Assembly: GCA_001275005.1 (NCBI GenBank)
Contig: JWZX01002736.1
Location: forward strand, 1 to 42,113
Source: Chrysochromulina tobinii
Taxonomy: Eukaryota
Direction: 5' to 3'
Length of the DNA: 42,113 nucleotides
Positions 1,852-35,896 of the stretch are shown piece after piece. The position numbers were made by a program, and so were the translations under genes. A model generated the notes under the pieces. That model saw only the letters and a program-made list of their open reading frames with translations. It was not told where the DNA came from and made no database searches. The number at the start of each line of letters is the position of its first letter. Position 1 is the stretch's first letter.

Positions 1852-4800
1852 ATGGCGCGCAACCGGGTCAGCTTCCTGGGAGAAGGGGTGGCGGCCGAAG
1901 GTACCCTCGAAGCGGACGAGGAGATATTTCCGGATGCTGAAGTGCTGGTGGAGACGGAACCTGGCTTGTATCTCCGTGGTCTAGTCCTCGCCGTCGGCGA
2001 TGCAGATATCGAGGTCGCGTTTGGCGAGGACGAGCGAGAGCAATGTGCGCGCAGCCACGTGTGGCCGGCCAATGAGGCCGGGTTGTATGTGGAAGACACG
2101 TCGGCGCTCGTGCACCTGTCCGAGGCCACGATCGTCGAGAACATTCGCGCCGGCCTAGTCGAGCGTGAAAGCATCTACCAGTGGGTCGGCCCGACCCTGA
2201 TCGCCGTCAACCCCATGCGGACGCTTTCGGGCGGCGAGCGCTACGGGGCGGCGGCCATGGAACGGTGCCGCAACGGGGCGGCAGCGAATCCACCCGCGCA
2301 TCCCTTTTTCCTCGTCGAGCTCGCGCTCCGCGACCTCGTGCGCCAGGGCCGCTCGGCCGCCTTTGTCGTGAGTGGCGAGAGTGGCGCGGGCAAAACGGAG
2401 TGCAACAAGCACCTGCTGCAGTACTGTCTGTGGCGTGCGGGGCACGAGGGGGTGCTCGCGTCGCGGCTGCGTGCGGTCACGCCGCTCGTCGAGCTCTTCG
2501 GCAGCGGCGCCACACGCCACAATGCCAACTCGTCGCGGGTGGGCCGCTTCCTGCAGCTGCATCTGGGGGTTGGAGCTCGTCCCAGTGATCGTGGCGTCTG
2601 GCCGACGCCGGTGGTGCGTCATGCGCAGCTGCAGACGTTTCTGCTCGAGCGCTCGCGCGTCGTCTCGGTCAACGTCGGCGAGCGCGGCTTTCACAGCTTC
2701 TATGGGCTCCTTGGCACAGCGCCCCTTGCGGGCGCGATCGGGCTTCTCGCCTTTGGTCACGAGCCTTCCGAGTTTGGATACCTCCATCCGGGCGTCGCGG
2801 CGCTGCCGGGGCGCGATGACGCCGCCGAGTTCGCAAGCGGCTGGGGCGCCCTCGGCGCCCTCGGCGTGAGTGCCGCCGACGCCACCTCGGCCGCCCAGCT
2901 TTTGGCCGCCGTGCTGCTGCTGGGTAATGTGAGCTTCGAGCAGTGTGCTGAGGGCGCATCCCCGACCGAGGGGGCGCATGCGGCGCTGGCGCAGCTCGGC
3001 CGTTGGTTGGGCGCCGACTTGAGCGGCGCGCTGCTCCATCGCTCGATGCCAGGGGGCTTTGGGCGCGCGAACGTGCTCTTGCCGCGCGACGCGGCGGCCG
3101 CGGCACGCGCGCGAGACGCGGTGGCACGCGCCCTTTACGTGCGCCTGTTTGCGCATCTGGTGGAGCTTGTCAACGCCGCCCTCGCGTCACCCGACGCGCC
3201 GACGGAGGCGCCGACGGAGGCGGAGGCTGCGGCCGGCGGCGGCGGAGGAGGCGGCGGCGGTGGCGGCGGCGGGCGGCTCGGGCTGCTAGACATCTTTGGC
3301 TTTGAGCGCTTCGAGATCAACTCGTTCGAGCAGCTGCTCATCAACTACTCAAACGAGGCGCTGCACGCACACTTCCTGCGCTCCATCTTCGAGTCCGAGC
3401 TGCGTCTGTACAAGGCGGAGGGCGTGCCGTGGCCGGATGTGCCGGTCGGTGCCGAAGAGCTCGACCTCTCATTGCCAATGATGGCCTCTGATGCCCTCTG
3501 CTGACCTCTGATGATGTGCCGGTCGGTGCCGAAGAGCTCGACCTCTCATTGCCAATGCTCTGATGGCCTCTGATGGCCTCTGATGGCCTCTGATGGCCTC
3601 TGATGGCCTCTGATGGCCTCTGATGGCCTCTGATGGCCTCTGATGGCCTCTGATGGCCTCTGATGGCCTCCGATGGCCTCCGAGCGCCCCTGATGGCATT
3701 TGATGACCTCTGATGGCATGCTGAGTGCATCTCTGAGTGCATGCCGATTGCCTGCCTCATCAGGTGCCGGAGAATCACGAGCTCCTTACGCTGCTCGCCG
3801 CGCGTCCAACTGGGCTCCTCCCACTGCTCGATGAACAGTGCGCCCTCGCCGATCCGAAGGACGAGGCCTTCCTGGAACGGGCCATGCAGGCGCACGCCCG
3901 CTCGCGCGTCTTCTCGCGCCCGAAGCAGCGCCGAGGACGGCGGCGCGGCGGCGGCGCTGCCAATAGCGATGCGCCCAAGGCCGAGTTTGTGCTGCGCCAC
4001 TTCGCCGGACCCATCCGCTACTCCTCTTCGCACTTCGTCGAGAAGAATGTGGACAAGCTGCCAGTGGAGGCTTCCGACGCCCTCGCCACCTCCACCGACG
4101 CCCTCGTCCACGCCCTCTTTGGCGGCGCTGGTGGCGGCGCTGGCGGCGGCGGCCGGCGTGGCGCGGCCACCGTGTACGCGGCCTTCGAGGCCTCCCTTCG
4201 CGAGCTGCTCGACGCTCTCGCCGCCACGCGCTCCTACTTTGTACGCTGCGTGCGCCCGCGCGGCGGCGTACACGCGCAGGAGCCTACCGGTACGGCCAGT
4301 GAGGCCGTCGGCGACGGCGCCTATGGCGAGCGTGCCTATGGCGAGCAGTACGAAGCGGGCGCGGGTGGCGCAGCGCCGCGGGTCGAGTTCGACGGCCGTG
4401 TAGTGCTCGGCCAGCTGCGTGCGTCGGGCCTGCTCGAGGCGGTGCGGCTGATGAAGCTCGGGTTCCCCACTCGACTCGACTACGTCGAGGTGCATGCCAA
4501 GTACGCGAGCGGGCTGCCCGAGTGGGCGGCTCAGCTGCCCGCGCGCGAGCTCGTGCGGGCTCTCGCTCTCGCGAGCGGTGTGCCCGCAACGGACCTGCGC
4601 TTCGGTACCACCAAGCTCTTCTGCCGTGCTTCGAGGGGCAGCTTCCTTGGGCGCCTCATGGGCGGCGGCGGCGGTGCGGATGCGCTCGACACGGCGCTTG
4701 ATGCGTCCGCCTCGCTGCCCGAGGTTCGTGCCCTCCTCGAAGAATATGAGCGGCGGCGTGCGGCTTTGCCCATCCTCGAGAAGACGTTGCTTATGTGGGT

Positions 4801-8092: not shown

Positions 8093-11000
8093 TCAGATCG
8101 AGCGCAGCCGATCAGCGCTCACCCCCTCCACGTACTTGCCGCCCTGCAAGGCCACGTCATACGTACCCTCCGCCTCGTTCCCGTCGTAAATTCGACCCTG
8201 GCGCCACTCGTCGCCGACAATCACTTCCACTGCCTGTCCCTCCCGGTAGCCGATGGCGACCGGTGCGACCGCGGGAGCCACGGCCAGTAGTTCACCGGTA
8301 TGAATACTGTACTGTGCACTGTCCCAGCCGGCAGTCCCCCTCCTGTTGTTGAGCTCAGGCTTCGCCACCTGCCCATGCAGCAGCACCTGCTCGCCAACGA
8401 GCCCTCCAGCACTCGGGTCGGGTGATGACGAAGACGGCGCCGTTCCTTGGACAGATTGTGTCCCTGGCTGTGGCTCATGTGTAGTGTCAAGCTGTTGCAG
8501 GTTGGCTGGCTTCAAGGACAGCAAGCTCCCATCCTGCAGCCGCACAGAGTACCGCCCGCGCTCGCTGTCCCAGCCAGCCGCAGTCCCCGTCCTGTCGTTG
8601 AGCTCTGGCTTCGCGACGAGCCCATGCACCAGCACCTGCTTGCCGACGAGCGGCGCGCGCTTCAATTCGAGCGCCCTATGCATGTCCATGACTTTGAGCG
8701 TGTCGGGGTGCCGATCGCCGAGCGTCCCACGGCTATGCTCGGTCAACAACGGCAGCGCGTCGCCAAGAAAACCCTTGGCCTTCAGCAGCATCCCCAGACT
8801 GTTGCTGTAGATGATCGTTTTAGGGTGCTGATCACCGAGCGTCGCACGGCTCGCCTCAAGCGCCTCGCGCAACAGCGGCTCCGCCTCGTCGAGCTTGCCT
8901 TCAGCATGCAGCAGCAGCCCCAGATTGTTCAGGGAGGTGAGCGTGTGAGGGTGCCGATCGCCGAGCGTCGCACGGCTCGCCTCAAGGTTTTCGCGCAACA
9001 GCGGCTCCGCCTCGTCGAGCTTGCCCTGGTCTGTCAGCAGCCCCCCCAGATAGCTCATGGAGATGAGCGTTTGAGCGTGCCGATCGCCGAGCGTCGCACG
9101 CCTCGCCTCGAGCGCCTCGCGCAACAGCGGCTCCGCCTCGTCGAGCTTGCCCTGGGCGTGCAGCAGCAACCCCAGATTGCCCATGGAGCCAAGCGTGTGA
9201 GGGTGCCGATCACCGAGCGTCGCACGCCTCGCCTCGAGCGCCTCGAGTCGCCCGCAGAGGAGCTCGTTCATGGCCTCGTTGTTCATGGCCTCGTTGGCCT
9301 CGATCTTTTTTTGGCGAATGGAGGTGAGCGTGTCAGGGTGCCGATCGCCGAGCGTCGCTCGCTGCGTCTCGATCGTCGCGATGGCGCCCAAAAGGCGCGT
9401 CGTCGCGATGGCGTCCAACAGCGAGTCCACGAGGGAGACCTCCTGCGCGTCCGCGAGGTCCACCATCTGTGGCTCCTGTGTAGTGTCAAGCTGTCGCAGG
9501 TTGGCTGGCTTCAAGGACAGCAAGCTCCCATCCAGCAGCCGCACAGAGTACCGCCCGCGCTCGCTGTCCCAGCCAGCCGCAGTCCCCGTCCTGTCGTTGA
9601 GCTCCGGCTTCGCGACGAGCCCATGCACCAGCACCTGCTTGCCGACGAGCGGCGCACGCTTCAATTCGAGCGCCCTTTGCACGTCCATGAGTCGGAGCGT
9701 GTCGGGGTGCCGATCGCCGAGCGTCCCACGGCAATGCTCGACTAACAGCGGCAGCGCCTCGTCGTGCTTGCCCTGGGCATGCAGCAGCGACCCCAGATGG
9801 CCGATGGAGCTGAGCGTGCTATGGTGCCGATCGCCGAGCGTGGCACGCTGCACCTCGAGCCCCTCGCGCAGCAGCGGCTCCGCCTCGTCGAGCTTGCCCT
9901 GTTCATACAGCAGCGTCCCAAGATTCATGATCGAGGCGAGTGTGTGAGGATGCCGATCGCCGAGCGTCGCACGGCTCGCCTCAAGGTCCTCGCGCAGCAG
10001 CGGCTCCGCCTCAAGGTCCTCGCGCAGCAGCGGCTCCGCCTCGTCAAGCCTGCCCTGGGCCTTCAGCAGCGATTCCAGATTGCGCATGGAGTTGAGCGTG
10101 TGCGGGTGCTGATAACCGAGCGTCGCACGCTTCGCCTCGAGCGCCTCGCGCAACAGCGGCTCCGCCTCGTCGAGCTTGCCCTGGTCCTTCAGCATCGCCC
10201 CCAGATTGTTGATGTAGATGAGCGTGTCAGGGTGCCGATCGCCGAGCGTCGCACGGCTCGCCTCAATTGCCTCACGCAACAGCGGCTCCGCCTCGTCGAA
10301 CTTGCCCTGGTCTGTCAGCAGCGTCCCCAGACTGCTCATGGAGTCAAGCGTGTCAGAGTGCCGATCGCCGAGCATCGCACGCCTGGCATCAAGCGCCGAG
10401 CGCATCAGCGGCTCCGCCTCGTCGAGCTTGCCCTGGTTATACAGCAGCGCCCCCAGATTGTTCATAGAGGCGAGCGTGTCAGAGTGCCGATCGCCGAGCC
10501 TCGCACGCTGCGCCTTGAGCCCCTCGCGCATCAGCGGCTCCGCCTCGTCGAGCTTGCCCTGGGCCTGCAGCAGCGTCCCCAGATTGTTGATGGAAGCGAG
10601 CGTGCCAGGGTGCCGATCGCCGAGCGTGGCACGCTGCACCTCGAGCCCCTCACGCAGCAGCGGCTCCGCCTCGTCAAGCTTGCTCTGGTTAAACAGCAGC
10701 AACCCCAGGCGATTCTGCAGCTTCGACGTCGCCCGCTCCTCGCGCGGCAGGCGCGCCAACGCCGCGCGGCCCTCCGACACGAGCCACTCGCGCAGCGCCT
10801 CCGAGAGCCGCGCATCTAGCTCTGTGTGACCGCCTTTCAGCGTGCGATCGATCGCCGCATGGACCATCGCCTGGTCCTCCCGCGTGAAGCACTCGGCCGA
10901 GCGCGAGTCAATGCGTGCCACGCTCGCCGCGATCGCGTCGAACTCATTCACCAGCGCCGCTTGAAAGTCAGTCGACTCCGCCGGCGGCAGCCGCACCCTC

Positions 11001-17547: not shown

Positions 17548-19206
17548 CTACTGCCCCGGCACCTTGCGCTTCCCGCCACGGCCCTTGCCGCTCTTGCCGT
17601 CGACGTCCATCGCGTCGGCATCGGGACCAGTGGCCGGGCCTGCAGCGCCATCGCGGAGCCTGACTTCCGGCTCGGGCTGGGTGGGCAGGAAGAGGAGCTC
17701 CTCGTCGTCGTCGTCCGCGTCGGGCACATGGTTGAGCTCTGTCGGGTCGATCGTCACGATGTCGATCTTCTCATCCTCGTCGTCCTCCCGATGCTTCGTC
17801 TCCTCTTGCGCCACTATGTCGAACTCGTCCTCCCGCTCTGATGAGGGAAGCCATCAGAGGCCATCAGAGGCCATCGGAGGCCATCAGAGGCCATCGGAGG
17901 CCATCAGAGGCCATCGGAGGCCATCGGAGGCCATCGGAGGCCATCAGCGGCCCTCACCCGCGTATTCCTCGTTCTCCTCGAGCTCCTTAAAGTCGGGTGC
18001 GAAGGCGGACCAATTCTCCGAATAGCGCTTCGTCCAGATGTAGACTGCGCCCGAGCGCGCGCAGCACGCTAGGATCGGGCGCGTCGGATGGCTCGCAAAG
18101 TACAGAGCGCCGTCCTTCACCTTGTCACCCTGCCCGAGGATATTCACGAGGTGACCTTGCATGTCCCAGATGTAGACGAGATGGTCGGCCGCCACGTACG
18201 CCGTACCGATGATGTGTTCCGACTCGGAGGAGAAGGCTGCGTGTGACCACTGCACACGGTGGAGAAGGCCCTCCCCGTCAGTGGTGATCAGCGGCCATCA
18301 TTGTGCACTCAGGCGCACTCAGGTGCACTCAGATCAGGTGCACTCAGATCAGGTGCACCTAGGCGCACTTACCTGCACGCGGTTGACCACGTCCTGCAGC
18401 TCTCGCGGCGCCGCCTTCTCGCCGGCCAGCATGCGCTCGAGCGAGCACGCGCGGATGATGCGGTCGGACGAGTTCGCCACGAACGACTTGCCGTTGCGAG
18501 AGAGCACCAGGGACTTGATCGCGGCGCCTCCTGGCAGTTGTACCGACGCGACGACCTCCCGGGAGTCGACCCTGATCAAATGGACTGCGCCGCGCGAGGT
18601 GCCCACGAGCGCGTGTGAGCCCTCGCGGTCGAAGCACGCGGCGGCCACGGCGTCCCGCCGCGCCTTGGGCGCCTCCGCGCCTGCGGACGTCTCCCCGCTC
18701 GCTGCTGCAGCCTCTTGACCCGCTGGTGCCTCCGCCACGTCCGTCTGCGGCAGCAGCGCGACACGCTGCTCGGCCCCCGGCAGCAGCGATACCAGGAACG
18801 CCTGGCTTGCCGCGCCCGTGCCGACGCATGCGAGGCAGACCGCGCGCCGACGCGGGTGCAGTGCCGCCTGTAGCACCTCGCCGCCCATGTCGACCGTCTG
18901 AAGTGCGGTGCTGTTGAGCACGTCCCAGACGATCAGCTTGCCGTCGGCCGAGCCCGAGAGTAGCTTGCGGCTGCTGCGCGTCCAGTGCACGCCGGTGACC
19001 CGGCCCGCGTGCCCGAGCAGCGTGCGGGCGACGCCGTGCGTGTCAAAGTCCCACACGACCACCGTACCCTTGAGGCAGCCGCCGGCGAGCAGATTGCCGC
19101 GCCCGTTGAAGGTGCACACAACGACCTCGTCCGGCGACACCTGCAGCCGGTCCTCGATCATCTCGGGAAGCTCGAAGAGCTCCGAGTCCAACAGGGCGAG
19201 GTTCAT
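17548..19206 (-). CDS. RBBP5: RBBP5/Swd1, WD40 subunit of the COMPASS H3K4 methyltransferase complex; introns 18250-18372 and 17838-17957
   Basis: MNLALLD start, WD40 repeats, QDVVNRVQ|WSHAAFS, and the diagnostic hinge ENWSAFAPDFKELEENEEYA|EREDEFD. Both splices are in frame. Confidence 0.93.
17850..17947 (-). repeat. Intronic 10-nt minisatellite (C[T/C]GATGGCCT)n in RBBP5 intron 2
   Basis: Plus strand reads (GAGGCCATC[A/G])n; same unit as the myosin intron when read in the sense direction. Confidence 0.93.
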
Positions 19207-24129: not shown

Positions 24130-27100
24130 TCATGTTTGGGGCACCTTGGCCTTTGAGCCAGCCCCCTTGATGAAGGCTTGCCCATTCTTGACGGCATTGC
24201 CAGCCTGCTGCAGCGGCGTGGGCGGCGCTGATTGGCTCAGAATCTTCTTGAGCTCGGTAAAGTCAAGGCTGCCGCCGCCGTCCCTATCCCACTCACTAAA
24301 GAGGGTGTCAATTTCGGCGCTCGGCACTTCAAGACCGAGAGCGCCCATTGCCTCGTGGAATTCCGCACGACTCACCTGCCAAATATAGGAACACATTGCC
24401 AAATAAGGGCTGTGCTCATAGGCAATCAGTGGTAAATCAGTGGAGCTCGTCGCGGCTGCACCTGGCCATCCCCGTCCGTGTCCCAATCACATTCACATTC
24501 ACATTCACATTCACATTCACATGCACCTGGCCATCCCCGTCCGTGTCCCAATCACGGAACAAATCGAGCACCTTGCCCGCGTTCTTGCGCAGCGCGGTCG
24601 CGAGCTGCACCGAGACGGGTGGGGCGAAAGGACCTTCCTCGAAATCGAAGCCCCCGGGCAGCGACCGCGAGCCCCTGCCGCGTTCCTTGGGTGGGCGCGC
24701 GTGGCGTGGGGATTTGTCTTTCTGCGCCGCCTTGAGCTCTTCCTTGAGCTCTTCCTTGAGCGCCTTGATCGTCGCCACGTGCGCTGCCTCCGCCTTCTCA
24801 GCACATGCGGCGTTCCACTGTGCCTTCGCGAGCACCGCAGCAAGCTCCTTCTCGGCCGCCAGGCGCCCCTTCTCCTCGGCAGTTGCCTTGGCCTCTGCGC
24901 CCTGCCGCCCCTCCTTCTCAGCGGCGAGCCGTGAACTCGTCGCACTCAACTCCTTGCGGATCCGATTCGATTCGCTCTCTAGGCCACGCTGCGCGGCCTC
25001 GGCCTCCTCCCTCATCTTCTCGAGCGTCGCCTGCGCCTCCCGCTGCTTGGCCGCGGCGGCCAGCTTGAGCGCCTGCAGCTCCACCTTAGCCGCCTTGAGC
25101 TCGGCCGCGTGTTTCGTCAACTCCCTCTCGAGCCTCTCCTTTTGAAGCCGCTCGGCGTGGAGCGCGTCCGCCCCGAGCCTCTCGGACTGCCCCTCGAGCT
25201 TGCGCCGCTGCTCGGCAAGGAGGCGCTCCAAGAGCTTTTGGCTCTCGACACGCCTCCTCTCCGCATCTGCCTCCGACTCGACGCGAAGGCGCTCCGCCTC
25301 CACCGCCGCCGCCGCGGCCTCGGCATGCTTGGCCTTCTCGGCCTCATAGGCGCGCCTGAGAGGACGCTCCTCGAGGGTGGACACGTATGAGGGCCAGAGG
25401 CCAATCAGAGGCCAATCAGTGGCCAATCAGTGATCAATCAGTGGCCAATCAGTGGCCAATCAGTGGCCAATCAGAGGCCAATCAGTGGCCAATCAGTGAT
25501 CAATCAGTGGCCAATCAGTGGCCAATCAGTGGTCAATCAATCAGTGGCCAATCAGTGGTCAATCAATCAGTGGCCAATCAGTGATCAATCAGTGGCCAAT
25601 CAGTGATCAATCAGTGATCAATCAGTGGCAATCAGTGGCAATCAGAGGCTATCACCTGAGCTCCTCGAGGGTCGACTTGACATTCGCGCCGTCGCCCATC
25701 GCGCCGCCCAGCTCGGCGAGCTTGTCGCGCAGCGCCCGGATCTCGTCCTCGTGCGCGAGATTGACGAGGCCCGCCTGATGAGCCTCGTGCCGAGCTCGCC
25801 GGAGCTGCGCCTCAAGAGATGCACCCTCGCGCTCCAGCCTCGCGAGCTCAGCAAGGCGCTTCGCCTCGAGCATGCTGCTCGACCAAAAAGACCAGGCACT
25901 TGCCTTTTCGGGCGAGCGGAGCTTGTTTCCCACCGCTCGCAGATGAGCGAGCGCGTAGCTGCGAGCCACCCAGAGGTCGACCCACGCTGACCAGCCGTCG
26001 GCGAGCGCCGCGTTAAGCAGCTTGCGCACGGACTGACGACGAAGCAGCACAGCTCGATGCGGCGCTCCATCAGAGGCCATCAGAAATCATCAGGCGGGGG
26101 GGTATCAATCGTCCTCAATCTTCATCACTCGTCCTCAGCCTGCAGCACGCACGCACGCACGCACGCATGCACGCACGCACGCACGCACGCACCCTTTGGC
26201 GGATGCGCTCGATACGCTCTTCCTTTTGCTGCTCCGTCTGCATGGCCTTCACCTGCTCCGCTGAGCCGGTGAGCACCGTCAGCTGGCGCTCGAGATGCTT
26301 CTTGTGCTCGAGCCGGAGCTCGGCGATCTCGCGCTCGTGATCGAGCTTGAGCTTCTCTATCTCCACCTGATGAGGGAAGCCATCCGGGGAGATAGGGGAG
26401 ATCCATGAGTGGTATGCTCGTCGTTCAGCAGTTGGACCCCTCATGGAATATTCCTCTTCAGCAGTCCGACCTCCGTGGGATCTGTCGTCATCGGTGGCGC
26501 AATCAGAGTCGTCATCAGTGGCAATCAGTGGTCCTCGCCTTGAGAGCCGATTGGCCCGACGCGAGCGCGTCTTCCCGCCTCTTGAGCGCCTTGAGCTCCA
26601 TCCGAGCTCGGCTCTCAATCACATCCGCACTCCAGAACGAGAACATGCCCGCTACCTCAGGCGCCTTGAGACGATTGCCGCACTCACGCAGCCGCTCGTA
26701 CGCGAACGCGCGTGCCGACCAGAAGTCATGCCACGCGGACCATCCAGCGCTGAGGCCGCGGCTTAAGATGCGTCGGGCCACCTGCCAGCAGAGTCGACCA
26801 GCAGAGCAGCTCGATGCGCGCCCTCAGAACCAATCAGGGCCAATCCAAACGCAACAAGACGCACTCGAAGGTGCTCATCAAAGGCCATCAGCACGTCCCA
26901 CTCACCTGTCGGTGGAGCAGCTCGATCCTCGCCGCCCTCTCTTGCCCCGCCCGCATTGCCATCACCTCGTCCGCTGTGCCAGTCAGTTCGACCAGCTGTC
27001 GCTTCAGCGCCGTCTCCTTATCGAGCTCGGCCGCCTGCAGCCGCCGCTCGTACTCGGCGCACTTGCGCTGCATCTGCTCAGAGAGGGTGAGGGCCTTGCC

Positions 27101-30100
27101 TTCAAGCCCGAGGGATCTCCGTCGCTCCTCCCGTAGCCGCTGACGCTGCTGCAGCGCGGCTACGACCGCAAACCACACGTCGAAGGCGTCGCTGATGCCT
27201 GGTGAACGGAACGAGCGTGCTGCGAGCCGTAGCTTGCGCTTCGCGTCCGTGCGAGCCGCCCAAAGCTCGACCCACGCTGACCAGCCGTTGGCGAGCGCCG
27301 CGTTGAGCAGCCTGCGCACGGACTGCCGACGGAGCAGCTCGATCCGCTCTTCCTTCTCCGCGGCCGCGCGCATCGCAAGCACCTCCTCCGTCGAGCCTGT
27401 GAACTCCACAGCCTGTCGCTTGAGCGCCGCCTGCTTGTCTAGTTCGGCCTGCTTCAGCAGACGCTCGAGATGGTGCACCTGCAGTCCGAGTCAATCACGC
27501 GTCAAGAGTCGCAATCAAATTCGTCATGAGGCAATCAGTAGCAATCAAATTCGTCATGAGGCAATCAGTGGCAATCAAATTCGTCATCAGGGACCATCCG
27601 AGGCCATCAGTGGCAATCATCCGCGCCACCGAACCTGCTTCTGAAGCCGCTCGGATTTCGTCAGAGCATCCCCCTTGAGCCCCGACTCCTTCGCCATCTG
27701 AGCTCGCAAGGCCTTCTGCTCCCTGGTCGCGCGCGCCGTGGCGGCTCCCTCAGCCCAGAAGCTCCACGCGCTCGAGAGGGCGGACGCCTTGAGTTGCCGA
27801 GCAGTCTGCCTGAGCTGATGCATGGCATGCCGTCGCGCCTGGGCGCACTGCTGGATGGCGATGAAGCCTCGGGTGAGCCCCACGTTCATGAAGCGCCTGC
27901 CGCTCTGCCGGCGCATCAGCTCGATACGGCGCTCCCTCTCCATCTTCGCCTGCGGTCATCAGAGGTCATCAGAGGTCATCAGCGGTCTCGTCAGAAAGGA
28001 TCAGAGGCCATCAGAGGCCCTCAGAGGTGATCATCAGAGGTGATCATCAGAGGTATCATCAGCGCCCATAATCTCACCTGAGCCTCGAGCATGGCCTCCA
28101 TCTGCGATTGGCCGCCGTCCAGTACGAGCAGCTTCGCATGGAGGGCCATCCTCTCGGCCTCCGAGGCGGCGAGCCGCCTCTCGTAATCCGCCTTCATCCG
28201 ATCGAGTTGCGAGAGTAGGTCCATGCGAGCCTGGGCTGCTTGCACCTCGCGCTCGTGTGCTGCCTTCGCCTCGCGCGCCGCCTTGAGGTGAAGGACGTCT
28301 AGGCGCCAGAAGTCGAAGAATTGGGTCACCTCCGGTGCACGAAGCCGGTTGCCCGCACGCGCGCAGCTTCGCGAGCGCGGAGGACTTAGCACGCCATGTG
28401 TCCACCCAGACGGACCAGCCGCGCGTGATGCCTGCGTTCATCATGCGCCGCACCATCTGCGCGGGTGCAGGGGTAAGAGGCGCTCCATCAATGATAATCA
28501 GACGCACTCGTAGCCCATCAGACGCACTCAGAGCCTATCAGGCGCACCTGCTTGTGCATGAGCTCAATGCGCTCCCTTTTGGCCTTCGCCTCGGCCTCCT
28601 CCTTGGCCAGTGCCTCCATCGCAAGCCCGCCATCGAGCTGCGCACACTGCTGGGCGAGAGCCTTCCTCTCGTCGGTCACCACCGCGAGAGCACCGAGCGC
28701 CTTCGTGAGCGCCTCCTCGAGTCGCTGGATCTTTCGGCCCTCCTCGGTGAGTAGCTCGGCCTTCATCTGGGCCTCCGCGCGCAGATGTGCCGCGACCGTT
28801 GCATGCAACCGCTTGAGCCAGTGCGCGAATGCATGCTGGAGCTCGGGGGACTTGAGACGATTCGCCACCTCGCGTAGCCGTCCCATCGCGTACCTGATGA
28901 GGAGAGCACTCAGAGGCTCTCAGAGGCGTTCAGAGGCACTCACAGGCCTTCAGAGGAACTTGGTGGCACTCGGCGGCTCTGCACTCAGTGGCACTCAGTG
29001 GCCATCAGCTGCTCGATGGCGTACGTCTTAGCCACCCAAAACTCACACCATCCTGAGAAGGCACTCGACAGCCCCACATGCATCAGACGGCGTGCACTCT
29101 GCTTGTGCATGAGCTCGAGCCGCTCGAGCCGCTGCTTTTCAAACTCCGCCTGAGGCGCGGCCAAGACGGCAATATCAGCCATCGTCAGTGTGGCAAAACA
29201 GCGGCACTCGGAAATACTCAGAGGTGTTCAGAGGCACTCCGAGGCACTGGTACCTGCAGCGCCGCCTCGCGCCGCGCTGCATACTGGCACGTGCAGCCAG
29301 CCTGCCACTGATCAAACTTGGCGCGCTGCTGTTCAAGCAGCTTCTCGAGCAGCGTCTTGTGCGAGGCCACCTGCCAAACAAGGGGTGATCAGACGCCATC
29401 AGACGCCATCAGACGCCATCAGACGCCATCAGACGCCATCAGACGCACGTGGGCCGCAATCAGCTCCGTGTGAAAGGCTATCTGATTCTCCGCCTCCGCT
29501 TCCGCCTCGACGCAATCAGACGCAATACAGACGCAATCAGACGCAATACAGACGCAATCAGACGCAATCAGACGCAATCAGACGCAATCAGACGCAATCA
29601 GCGACCTGCTTCGCCGCCTCCGCCTCCGCCTCGAGGCGTCGCTCATCGGCGAGGGCGGCCTGCTCCAGACAGCGCTTGTTCTCGGCGATCAGCTGCTCTG
29701 GCGAGGTACTCTTGCCGAGGAGCGTCGCGTATTCGTGCTCCTTGGCCGTGAGCGTCGCGGTGAGCTCCCGCACGCGCTCGCTGAGGCCTTTGGTATCGTC
29801 CTCGTGCGCCACCTGCAGAAGCTCGAGCTTGTTCCGAAAGTATTTCTCCTGCCGCGCCTTATGCGTGTCGAGCTCGCTCAGCACGTGTGCCTGCTCTCGC
29901 AGCTGAGACTCGGCCTCGTCTAGGCTGCTGCTGAGCTCCTTCACTCGGTCGTGCAGCAGCTTACGCTCGTGCTCGGTCTGCGCCGCCTCCCTTTTCCAGT
30001 GCTCGAGCTGCGCCTGCACCGAGCGCTTCTCGAGCACCTTGTCGCCCATCAGCTTCTTGATCGCCTCGTTCTCGAGCACGCGCCTGCCACGTGCAAGCAA

Positions 30101-31511
30101 CACAAGGGGGACTTCCGTTCGTGAGAGGCTGCTGCAGCGGGGAGGACAGCGGGGAGCACAGCCCGAGATCTACCCGAGATCATGGCAGGCAGTAGCAGGC
30201 AGGTCGAGCCAAGAAGGTGGCGGCGGCGGCGGGCGGCGACGACAGCAGCGGCAGCGGCAAGCAGCGGCGAGCAGCGTCCAGGTGGCGCGGCGCGGCATGT
30301 GGCAAGTCCGGCCCCGGCGGTCTTGATCCAATCGCAAGCCTTTAGGTGGCCAGGGCCGGCGCCTCTCTCTTGCACGTCATGGGACGGAGTCTCAGGCATG
30401 GGATGCGGGCTGAGTCGTCCGGGGGTTGACGTTGTGCGACAGTTGGCCTATCGGTTGGCCGAGCAGACCCTAGAAATATGGCAATCGTAGAAGGCAATCA
30501 AGGGTCATCACAGAAATGTCTTCAGGGGCCATCAGGGGTCATCGGGGGCGTCACGCACAACCAGCCGTAGAAGGCTTCCGCCGTGCCCTTGCGTAGCCGG
30601 TTGGCACACTCGCGCAGCTTGCCGAGCGCATACGCACGCGCGTAGCAGTACTCGGCCCACGCGTTGAAGCCGAACATGATGCCCTGGTTCCGTATGCGCC
30701 TGCCGGCCTGACGATGCAGCAGGTCGACGCGCGCTTGACGCTCCTTTTCTCGTGCCTCGCGCTCCTTCTTGCTGAAGCGGGCGGAGGACTCCTCGAGCGA
30801 GCCGCTCAGGGCGCCCACCTGCGTCTTCATCACGCGAAGCTGCGAGAGAGTCGTCTCCTTCTCACGATCGCCGTCCGCGACACGTCGCTCGTACTGATCG
30901 GTGAGCTCGCGCAGCTTCGCCTGCCACTCGCGCTGCACCTGCTCGAGTTTCAGATCGAGCTCGTTAGGGGGAGTGCACTCGTTCGTCTCGCCCACGGCGC
31001 CCGAGCCGTCGAGATGCGGCATGGCCCCTGGGCGCACCACCCCGTATGCCGAGTCGATCTGCCGTTGGCGCACGGCCACGTCGATGGGCTTGCGACTCGT
31101 GTTCAGGTCGGTGACCTGCTGCTCAAGCTCCTTGATTCGCTTACGGAGCGTGATGACCTCGCGGCGCAGCTTGCGGTCTTCATCATATGGCGAGCCACTG
31201 GCGGCCGGCAGCGCCGGCAGATCGCCCGGCGTGAAGGGCCGGCTCACGCTCAGGTCTGTGTAAGGCGTGGAAGTGCGGGGGAGCATGAGCTGCACGTTGC
31301 CCTTCTGGCTGGGAGGATTGCGGTGCGGGACGTCCAGAGGCGCTACTGCGCGCGCCGCAGACGGCAGCTGAGTGCCGCCTCCGTCATGCATCTTCGTAGG
31401 GCTACCCCATGCACCGATCGGGCCGCCAAAGGGCACCACGGCCCGCGGCCGAGAAGGCTGCGGAGGGAGCTTCATGACACCGAGCTCTGCGGCGCTCAAT
31501 GAGGGATGCAT
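24130..31511 (-). CDS. Large coiled-coil protein with 7 paired Sfi1-like (centrin-binding) repeat modules and a C-terminal EF-hand pair; 13 exons; apparent +1 frameshift at about 28352
   Basis: Inferred introns: 30084-30561, 29371-29605, 29150-29253, 28894-29024, 28457-28547, 27950-28077, 27479-27634, 26782-26905, 26367-26538 (GC-AG), 26033-26192, 25356-25655, 24376-24526. Modules read RIELxxRQxxRRxxNxxxxxG[W/F]xxW...[A/F]FxxW. EF loops DTDGDGQ|VSRAE and DRDGGGSLDFTE. Confidence 0.8.
25395..25650 (-). repeat. Intronic 10-12-nt minisatellite, mainly (CTGATTGGCCA)n
   Basis: Plus strand is a tandem array of TGGCCAATCAG and TGATCAATCAG variants. Confidence 0.93.
29388..29601 (-). repeat. Two intronic 10-nt arrays, (CTGATGGCGT)n and (CTGATTGCGT)n, flanking a copy of the upstream exon end
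   Basis: Plus strand (AGACGCCATC)n at about 29388-29445 and (AGACGCAATC)n at about 29510-29601. Confidence 0.92.
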
Positions 31512-32964: not shown

Positions 32965-35896
32965 ATGTCGGCTCTTATCAACGCGGCTTTCGCGCTCGTG
33001 ACGGTCCTCTTGATCATGCTCGCCTTTCACCGGCCGGTCATGGAACGGCGCACTGTGGTGGTGGGCGACTGGGCGCAGTGCGTCAAGGCCGACGGCGGGC
33101 GTGGTCTTTGCATGACTGACGATGTCAACACCCGCACCTCGATCGCCAATGTCGTGGACAGCATGCAGCTCGACCTCAACGCTGCCGAAGCGGCGCTCCG
33201 CGATGCGAACAGAGCTCTCACCGGTGGTAGTGCTGTGGCAGCGCCGACACCAAGCAGTACCAGCTTTTCCGTCGCCGCTGCGGTCGCGCCGACGCCAAGC
33301 AGCGTCGGCCCTTTGGCCACGGCCGCCAGCAAGCAGTGCCATCCCGAGTGCACACGGCGCGGCACGTGCAACCTCGAGCTGGGTCGCTGTGACTGCCCGC
33401 CCTTTTATACGGGCGCCGACTGCTCGGAGCCGCTCTTTCCCGCGTGCGTCAAGCAGTGGGGCCTCGCGATGCCTGTCGCGTCCTGCGGCATCCACACGCA
33501 GCCCGCCTTCCCAAGCAGCTGCGAGTGCGTGTGGGAGTGCCACGAGCTCGGCCTGGACGCGCGCCAGGAGTGCCTGGTGGAGCCCAAGCCGGGCCAGACG
33601 ATGGCCCAGGCGGCCGCCGACGTCAAGAACCGCATGGGCTGGATGCCCGTCGTAGCGAACGAGACGTGGCTCCAGCGCACACGGGCGGATGCCGACGCGA
33701 GTGCCTCCGATGACCGGTGCTCGGGGCACGGCATCCTTTCTGTGCAGCTGCCGTACGAGTTCTACCCGAAGGAGGCGGATTGTCAGCCGGGCGGGCGTCA
33801 ATACAATCTCGAGGAATGCCTCAACCAACGCGTACCCAAGTGCCGCTGCTTCCCCGGTTGGTCGGGGGCCAAGTGTGACCTCCGGATGGACGAGCATACT
33901 CATTTGCACAAGTGCCTCAACGACTGCTCTGGACAGGGCACGTGCGTCTCCAACTTTTGCAAGTGCAAGCCGGGCATCTACGGAGCCGACTGCTCGCTCG
34001 GGGGCGCTACGCCTCTCCGGCCGACAGCGCCGTCCACAGGCCTTCGGCCACGGGTCTACGTGTACGACGTGCCGCCACGCTTCACTAGCTGGATGGGCAC
34101 CTTCCGCCGGGGCGACTGGACGCGTGACCATTGGTATGGCGTCGATGTGATGCTGCACCAGCAGCTGCTGCGCTCGCCGTACCGCACACTCGACCCCGAG
34201 CAGGCCGACTTCTTCTTCATACCTCTCCATCTCTCCCTCGGCTTCTACTCTCACCGGTACGACGCCAGGCGCTGCTTGCGTCGCTGCTTGCGTCGCTGCT
34301 TGCGTCGCTGCTTGCGTCGCTGCTTGCGTCGCGACTCTCACCGGTGTGACGCCAGGCGCTGCTTGCGTCGCTGATGGGCGAACCGCCTTCGTCCTTGGGC
34401 AGGTACTACTTCAAGCACTTCACGCTGCCCGCGGCCAAGCCACTTCGCGACGTGCTGCAGTACGTACGGCAGACGTGGCCCAAGTATTGGGCACGCCGTG
34501 GCGGGCGCGACCACCTGATCGTGATGACGCAGGACCAGGGCAATCGGTTCGTGCGCGAGTCGGTGCGTGAGTCGACGCCCCTTATCATGATACACCACTG
34601 GGGCGCCCCCGCCTCGGTCAAGGTCGACGGACAGGGGCAAGGGGATCACAAGGTGGGATTCGACATCACGGTGCCCCCCTTCCATGGCGAACAGGCGCGT
34701 CTCAATCGCTGGATGCTGCACGGTGACTTCGCCAAGGTCGCTCCCCTCGATGCGGCCGCGCTGCGCCTCGTTCCAGCGGAGGATTCCTTCAAGCACGACC
34801 TCTTCTTCTCCGGCAAGATGAACCTGAATTGGGGCCGTCATTGCTCTCTCGGCGTCCGTCAAGGCGTATACCGCGCTCACCGGCGCCACCCGCGCTTCAA
34901 AATCCTCACCTTCGACAACGGCGTGCAGGAGAAGCTCCCCTTCCCTACGCACGTGGATAACTACGCATCGGCTAAGTTCTGCCTCGCGCCCGCAGGCTAC
35001 GGCTTCTCCTCTCGCCAGTACGCTGTGATGGCCGCTCATGGCCGCTCATGGCCGCTGATTGATCCTGATGCCCACTTCATGCGTACGAGTGCGTCTCCTT
35101 GCGTGTGGCGGCCTCTGATGGGGGCCCTCCCTAATTTGGCATCTGATTGGGCACGATGGCAGGTACGAGCGCATGCTGGTGATGATTGCGGTGGATTGCG
35201 TCTGATGGAACCTCCCTAATTTGGCAGGTACGAGTGCGTGCTCGTGGGCTGCGTACCCGTAGTCATCCAGGACGACGTCGAGATGGCCTTCGAGGAGGTG
35301 CTGCCCTGGCACCGCTTCTCCATCCGGCTCAACTTTTCGGACATCCCGATCCTTCCGCAGGTGAGTACCACTGATTGCGACTGATTGGGACAGATAGGAA
35401 CGTCTTCTGAGCCTCTCGCCTCGTCCCGATCCTTCCACAGCTGCTGGCACGCGTACCTGCGGCACACGTCGCGCGCCTACGCCGCGGCCTCGGCTGCGTC
35501 TGGCCTCGGATGCTCTGGCTAGCTCCGGGCCTTTACCCGCATGCGACCGACTCCGACCCAACGCTCGTCGCTGCGCGCCCGCACGATGCCTTCGAGACGA
35601 CCATGCGGACGCTGCGCCGCCGGCTGAAGCTGGGCGACTCGGCGGCGTCAGAGGCCGAGCCGTGGCGTGCTGCCGTTGAGAGCTGCCTCGTCGAGGACGG
35701 CGACGAGGCTGCATTTGACCTCGGCGCCTTGCGCCGACAGGTGCGCGCTGAGACGCTCACGCTGAGCCAGGACGCGAGCGACATGGAGTCCATCCTCCGC
35801 GAGTGGGAGCTGGGACGTGACGACAAGACGTTTGCGATGAAGACGCGCTTCTTCCCGTCTGGCGTGAAGATTCCTGGCGTGAAGTGGACGGATTGA
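32965..35896 (+). CDS. Exostosin-family (GT47) glycosyltransferase with N-terminal TM anchor and EGF-like repeats; introns 34257-34402, 35018-35227, 35361-35440
   Basis: TM helix, EGF repeats (CNLELGRCDCPPFYTGADC, CLNDCSGQGTC), RVYVYD, RTLDPEQADFFFIP, GGRDH, FCLAPAGYGFSSRQ|YECVLVGCVPVVIQD. All three splices are in frame. Confidence 0.9.
34270..34331 (+). repeat. Intronic 12-nt repeat (CGCTGCTTGCGT)x5
   Basis: Direct reading within exostosin intron 1. Confidence 0.9.

Follow-up and report, generated by a model that had tools for sequence, protein, structure and literature searches.

Intron L, the last intron of a reverse-strand gene in the 42,113-nucleotide stretch of DNA analyzed here (the window), probably arose by two successive duplications at the DNA level, of different age, and not from copied spliced RNA. 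Inside this intron the two sides of an old junction adjoin, as the first-pass annotation had described, and this internal junction is best read as an older exon–intron boundary that came to lie inside the intron when intron-bearing DNA was duplicated later on. A junction-spanning intronic copy looks like proof of an RNA template, yet two DNA duplications can build one; the two origins can be told apart by intron-specific bases within the copy and by unequal ages of its halves. Where new introns come from has long been asked, and a graded set of footprints that can still be read is preserved in few systems. In the present case, a gene with 12 introns contrasts with four paralog loci that read as uninterrupted ORFs, the footprints range from perfect to nearly erased and occur both singly and nested, and the route of insertion with long duplication is testable in a cultured alga.

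The host gene and the architecture of intron L

The window is GC-rich eukaryotic DNA, presumably of a freshwater haptophyte, and is matched by mixed cultures and freshwater metatranscriptomes. The host gene (about 24130–31500, reverse strand, with an approximate 5′ limit) was delimited by tblastn with the ortholog L024, a gene model and Pfam EF-hand matches, and its product is a long protein of repeats and coiled coils with a pair of EF-hands at the C terminus. Alignment to the uninterrupted ORF of L024, itself likely a transcript, gave 12 introns, designated A to L. The exons flanking introns C (104 nt), H (124 nt) and I (172 nt, with a GC donor) are joined directly in RNA contigs, and the joining across introns J and L was read by contig-record arithmetic; introns A, B and K fall outside both stretches compared, and the contigs of X13 have no cover at junction L.

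Intron L (24376–24526, reverse strand, as are all the parts described below) is a 151-nt GT-AG intron in phase 0, placed by ortholog alignment, RNA contig arithmetic and its presence in the genomic loci L019, L020, L021 and L022. Its boundaries (24526 and 24376) are the top-scoring pair against the ortholog protein. Upstream lies the 29-nt exon end in the first EF-hand loop (…DGDGQ; 24527–24555), the putative template of the younger copy. The intron opens with the donor in use, GTGCA (24526–24522), followed by five GTGAAT units (24491–24526 with the donor), an exact copy of the exon end (24462–24490, 29/29 identical and ending in AG), and a decayed copy of the first 21 nt of the next exon (24440–24461), which is 22 nt long with one extra base, starts with a second GT and was recognized by pairwise and family-profile comparison. 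A non-exonic body of 64 nt (24376–24439), also ending in AG, completes the intron, and the last exon then starts with VSRAEFH (24355–24375), the partner of the decayed copy.

The donor, the GTGAAT units and the exon-end copy together form the young, 65-nt expansion. The GTGAAT unit is similar to the donor and also to the start of the copied stretch, and runs of more than two units were found nowhere else in the window and in none of seven scanned paralog loci. The second GT, at 24461, would have been the first donor, at a time when the intron measured 86 nt. Within the 64-nt body, CTGAT motifs, which resemble the branch-point consensus, lie at −65 and −54, and the pyrimidine-rich 3′ end is doubled; a 13-nt motif from this 3′ end occurs four times in the window, against 0.10 expected. 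Likeness between the 3′ end of the intron and the end of the upstream exon extends over 4–5 nt only (p = 0.17–0.21). By computation, use of the inner donor (24461) would place a stop codon at the new junction, and use of the inner AG alone would lead to a stop about 10 codons on.

The exact copy in genomic loci and RNA contigs

The 34-nt copy reported by the first-pass annotation is exact (24457–24490 equals 24522–24555), can be extended on neither side, and consists of the 29-nt exon end plus the first five bases of the intron. The full intron, copy included, is present in 4/4 close genomic loci. Over about 2.4 kb, L019 has 19 substitutions relative to the window, one of which alters the intronic copy but not its exonic counterpart; L022 has 36 over about 3.8 kb, one of them near the 3′ end of intron L. 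Because the full intron is found in L019–L022 together with these allelic differences, the duplication is real and common to the lake and cultured lineages; an assembly artefact was rejected, the four loci having been assembled independently. In one DNA contig (X10 record 1), 24536 adjoins 24470 and 65 nt of the duplication are missing. An allele lacking these 65 nt, considered from this contig and from a word share of 0.97 in all ten DNA runs, is the less likely reading, since all four loci carry the full intron; the gap in the contig more probably reflects collapse of the 34-nt repeat in a 31-mer assembly graph.

The predicted splice pattern was borne out by two RNA contigs (X11 record 10 and X12 record 17), the lengths of which fit the removal of exactly 151 nt. 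Both come from one study, of a strain about 2–3% different from the window, which agrees with L022 at only 5 of 24 alleles and with L019 at 2 of 12. Since this strain is distant by alleles, its contigs confirm junction L and not the intron in that strain's own DNA.

Intron gain at the EF-hand site

Absence of an intron at DGDGQ|V from orthologs had been proposed as a check, and it was observed in the ortholog ORF P0002 and in all seven same-culture paralog loci, three of which have AG|GT at the site. P0002, taken as genomic from its intron-like start and its 18-kb contig, reads through all the sites of introns H to L without interruption, and four paralog loci read as uninterrupted ORFs of 1,207–1,731 amino acids. 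No intron at the exact position of intron L was found among 50 of the 74 non-focal loci, of which one was not evaluable and many are probably transcripts; three of the 50 have an intron near the site. A gain of intron L at a pre-existing AG|GT in the first EF-hand is supported by these sequence comparisons, and an intron missing from the same site in relatives is what is taken to mark a recent Introner gain. In loci L082, L084 and L085, from other species, apparent introns lie 2 and 11 nt upstream of the site within the same EF-hand loop, which suggests independent gains.

Two probable duplications of different age

The halves of the copy in intron L are unequally preserved, with 29/29 identical positions upstream and 14/21 downstream (Fisher p = 0.0012), and as judged from these counts they appear to differ in age. 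The exact copy continues into GTGCA, including the extra C, and agrees at 5/5 positions with the start of the intron and at 3/5 with the exon's GTGAG. Because it carries the intron's own first bases, its source was probably DNA in which the intron was present; a spliced template could not have provided these bases. The first-pass annotation had derived the copy from the intron-less ancestral gene or a spliced RNA; the unequal halves and the copied intron bases speak against a single copying event from either.

In the older of the two proposed steps, about 64 nt of repeat-rich DNA would have been inserted some 21 nt downstream of AG|GT, duplicating those 21 nt; the insert would have supplied branch-point-like motifs and the acceptor, and the left 21-nt copy the GT donor, giving an 86-nt intron. 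The left copy would thereafter have decayed freely while the exon copy drifted at synonymous sites. In the younger step, a 65-nt expansion would have copied the last 29 exon bases and the first five intron bases, with a locally derived GTGAAT microsatellite as the bridge, by repair or slippage synthesis with microhomology. With the upstream donor used in RNA, the old boundary would now be intronic and mimic a spliced junction. This second step was likely neutral because the full upstream donor was retained, and boundary duplications that keep a complete upstream donor and confine the change to the intron are likely tolerated in general. As no 86-nt or intron-less allele was found in this lineage, where the four close genomic loci all have the full 151 nt, we infer the order of the events. 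Recursive splicing, a known concept, is a possible mode of removal for intron L, whereby 65 nt and then 86 nt would be excised and the first removal would rebuild the old boundary.

The agent of the first step may have been either a mobile element or staggered-break repair. Duplications as variable and long as these are more in keeping with staggered-break repair or target-primed insertion than with a cut-and-paste transposon, and the 3′ ends shared among introns may point to a mobile element.

The same footprints in other introns

A sample of 26 introns was assembled, 12 set by homology and the other 14 detected by their repeats, in the window and in the two paralog loci L071 and L087. Of the 26, 8/26 begin with a copy of the next exon (p < 0.05 each; binomial p = 2.7 × 10−5), a count that does not include intron L, taken as 86 nt, and that is to be read with the boundaries of the 14 repeat-found introns having been set by ORF continuity, with ties by eye, which can favor copy-consistent boundaries; two of the L071 introns keep the reading frame open throughout and are possibly not spliced. 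Copies of the previous exon at the end of the intron were seen in 5/26. Exon copies with p < 0.05 are 7 to about 30 nt long, the strongest 15–28 nt; among the strongest start copies are a perfect one of 25 nt (L087 9630–9707) and others of 15–28 nt with few changes, some of these in the range of 25–28 nt. Copies across a donor boundary were found at 3513–3557 (9/9 exon and 36/36 intron positions) and 34334–34373 (10/10 exon and 28/30 intron positions), and mirror cases, copies across an acceptor boundary, in three introns. The first step alone thus appears in younger form in other introns, and the second step alone is represented by copies that clearly derive from intron-bearing DNA. Intron L is not the most diagnostic case that it had been held to be, given the cleaner single-step footprints in L087 and L071 and the better one-step candidate in intron B.

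Permutation of own against foreign flanks over the 12 introns of the host gene gave p = 0.0016, and 0.027 without intron L. No boundary copy was found in introns G, I, W2 and W4. Interrupted copies that are visible by eye in introns H, J and K escape the anchored test. The 3′ ends are of the CTCATCAG type in 9/26 introns and of the TGGCAG type in 6/26, and the bodies are made of variable repeats. Among viral contigs, the intron 3′ motif was matched 18 times.

Tandem arrays with a unit of intron end plus exon start occur in L071 (9014–9199 and 15072–15235) and L072 (about 8940–9200), the first array having one unit more in L072 than in L071; they are possible recursive or alternative acceptors. 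One intron at 17957–17838 (reverse strand) starts with GTGAGGG and ends with CCCTCATCAG, a partial inverted pair, possibly a trace of inverted termini in a parent element. The intron at 35018–35227 contains two further internal, decayed copies of the start of the next exon, which suggests several rounds of duplication.

Intron B and the case for a single event

Intron B of the host gene (29605–29371) contains a second junction-spanning copy (29461–29513, reverse strand), ungapped over 53 nt and identical at 42 of them; it matches the end of the upstream exon at 28/32 positions and the start of the downstream exon at 14/21. There is no GT at its junction, and 10-mer repeats flank it on both sides. 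None of 650 foreign pairs of junction and intron gave a match of this kind. The downstream half is significant alone (p = 0.0017), the halves are not significantly different (Fisher p = 0.09), and the start of the intron and the next exon each match at 3/5 positions, so no intron-specific bases were copied. One-step templating may therefore apply to intron B.

For intron L, a one-step insertion from intron-free DNA is unlikely, though it is the specific alternative that fares best. A break at the junction would have been repaired by copying about 50 nt of a sister or homologous allele, with repeats added on both sides, and later conversion would have refreshed the upstream half only. Introns L and B do have a common layout, in which the donor and repeats come first, the junction-spanning copy next, and further repeats and the acceptor last, and the halves of B are compatible with equal age. 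The used donor of L, however, has the extra C of the decayed half, and the inequality of its halves calls for a second event anyway; moreover, each half is found alone in other introns.

A broader reading, which we regard as similarly doubtful, is an ongoing intron factory other than a conventional transposon, in which breaks in coding DNA would be filled with new branch-point-like repeats and 13–45 nt of flank copied repeatedly; at least some junction copies, such as that in B, would come in one step from an intron-free template, either a sister allele or spliced RNA. Recursive removal, of 65 and then 86 nt, would be possible for nested introns of the type of L.

Origin of the downstream half

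Two duplications, as preferred here, presuppose that the decayed segment is indeed related to the start of the last exon. The similarity to VSRAEFH had been claimed earlier, with a proposal that its significance be tested, and by pairwise comparison the claim is only marginally upheld. Past the five common bases, 24461–24440 and 24375–24355 are identical at 11/17 positions (naive p = 0.0016), but with offset and length left free, 145/3000 and 132/3000 random windows match the downstream half equally well (p about 0.044–0.05), and an anchored pairwise test gave p = 0.05–0.08. The claim stands by the EF-hand family profile, which was built from 34 distinct 21-mers of 39 of the 74 non-focal loci. 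The intronic copy scores 12.1 bits against this profile and the true exon 18.2 bits. Scores of at least 12.1 bits were reached by 3 of the 4,271 GT-starting windows of the window (the exon, the copy and one unrelated) and by 1 of 15,000 random windows; among 26 other intron starts the highest score was −2.4. The profile is decisive in identifying the downstream half as true EF-hand coding homology.

It is accordingly quite improbable that the downstream likeness arose by chance, with only the exon end and donor duplicated locally and an intron of unknown origin. The GC-rich sequence and the pairwise p of only 0.044–0.08 after correction for the choice of window leave some room for such a coincidence, but the profile places the segment among the top three GT windows in exact register, and the same footprint is present in 8/26 introns.

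Hardly more credible is ectopic template switching, with the downstream half acquired from an EF-hand paralog. At least seven paralog loci are present in the organism, and the decayed copy is closer to members of the family (19/21 to one family 21-mer) than to its own exon (15/21). This gap is explained by synonymous drift of the last exon, where GC3 is lower (0.67 versus 0.83), and younger cases copy their own adjacent exon exactly. The intronic and exonic copies thus both seem to have changed from a common earlier sequence, an indication that the event is old.

Templating by a spliced mRNA or cDNA is the least probable origin: L and B each have both sides of the junction next to one another and the copy in B has no GT at its junction, but a copy of spliced sequence would be free of intron-specific bases and have equally diverged halves, the exact copy in L bears intron bases and the halves of L differ in age (p = 0.0012, compared with 0.09 in B), and the parallel copies at 3513–3557 and 34334–34373 include 28–36 nt of intron and so come from an unspliced source. 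Nor did any copy extending over more than one junction come to notice among the introns inspected.

Relation to known modes of intron gain

The nearest analog of two successive DNA duplications is found in Daphnia pulex, for which the accessible part of the report describes neointrons arising by staggered double-strand-break repair, with exon repeats of 4–12 bp and secondary staggered events (PMC4202315). Intron L works in the same way insofar as exon repeats and secondary events are concerned. The repeats of 4–12 bp given in that part of the report are shorter than the exon copies here (about 13–28 nt, with boundary copies up to 45 nt), and, unlike in the Daphnia cases it covers, the inserts here share branch-point-like 10-mer repeats and 3′ ends, and a second event re-copies the exon end and donor. 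Intron-free and intron-bearing alleles side by side in populations would mark the Daphnia type; here, 4/4 close genomic loci carry the full intron.

In Introners of Symbiodinium and Polarella (classes 4/5 and 6/8/10), the available section of the preprint has the acceptor carried by the element and the donor derived from the target-site duplication (bioRxiv 10.1101/2020.10.14.339549). As there, the donor here would come from the duplicated target and the acceptor from the insert, with the coding sequence left intact; a target-site duplication that supplies a splice site is seen in the decayed 21-nt copy starting with GT and in the perfect and near-perfect 25-nt cases in L087. The duplications in that section are fixed at 3–8 nt and the bodies are near-identical copies, whereas here the duplications are variable and much longer (7 to about 30 nt, not the fixed short length of DNA-transposon-type Introners) and the bodies are variable tandem repeats. 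A marine Chrysochromulina sp., likely of the same algal group as the organism here, also has Introner-type gain; the figured example in the part of the preprint at hand has 4-bp duplications, with the donor carried and the acceptor co-opted (bioRxiv 10.1101/2022.06.06.494994). The commonest young form here is the reverse of that example, with copies of about 25 nt. Two freshwater Chrysochromulina genomes appear, among the supplementary rows available, only in the list of screened genomes (PMC9860276), and a 2025 survey, in its accessible portion, gives about 72% of introners as unclassifiable (PMC12130899).

Introns born by tandem genomic duplication likewise have a duplicated AG|GT site, and in the potato case an intron–exon boundary is duplicated, like the acceptor-side arrays in L071. 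Such introns consist of duplicated exon only, with both splice sites from AGGT; intron L has a 64-nt foreign body and so is not duplicated exon alone. In the literature covered, mostly open-access titles, no description of long flanking-exon copies in freshwater haptophyte introns was found. Insertion with a donor-supplying duplication was already known; new here are the nested, two-age form and the test for telling it apart.

Further observations on the host gene

Elsewhere in the host gene, a single extra base at 28352–28354 disrupts the frame; because it is missing from L020, L021 and the RNA contigs of three runs, it is likely an assembly error in the window. The protein (24130–31500) has Trp-containing repeats in addition to the terminal EF-hand pair, with only the EF-hands found by Pfam in the parts scanned, and we presume a resemblance to Sfi1-like centrin-binding repeats. 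Intron I (26538–26367, reverse strand) is a GC-AG intron, and an RNA contig spans its junction. In intron J (26192–26033, reverse strand), the 3′ end resembles ortholog coding sequence (LLRRQ) and the exon end used in RNA reads RIRQR, so the more ancestral-looking copy appears to be the one that is spliced out. The 11-mer repeat array of intron K (25655–25356) is about 205 nt shorter in L022, with the exon-end copy near the acceptor kept; its repeat number differs among strains. Finally, the 10-mer intron repeat at 27954–28033 draws very high summed contig depth in 4/4 RNA runs, which suggests that it is present at many loci.
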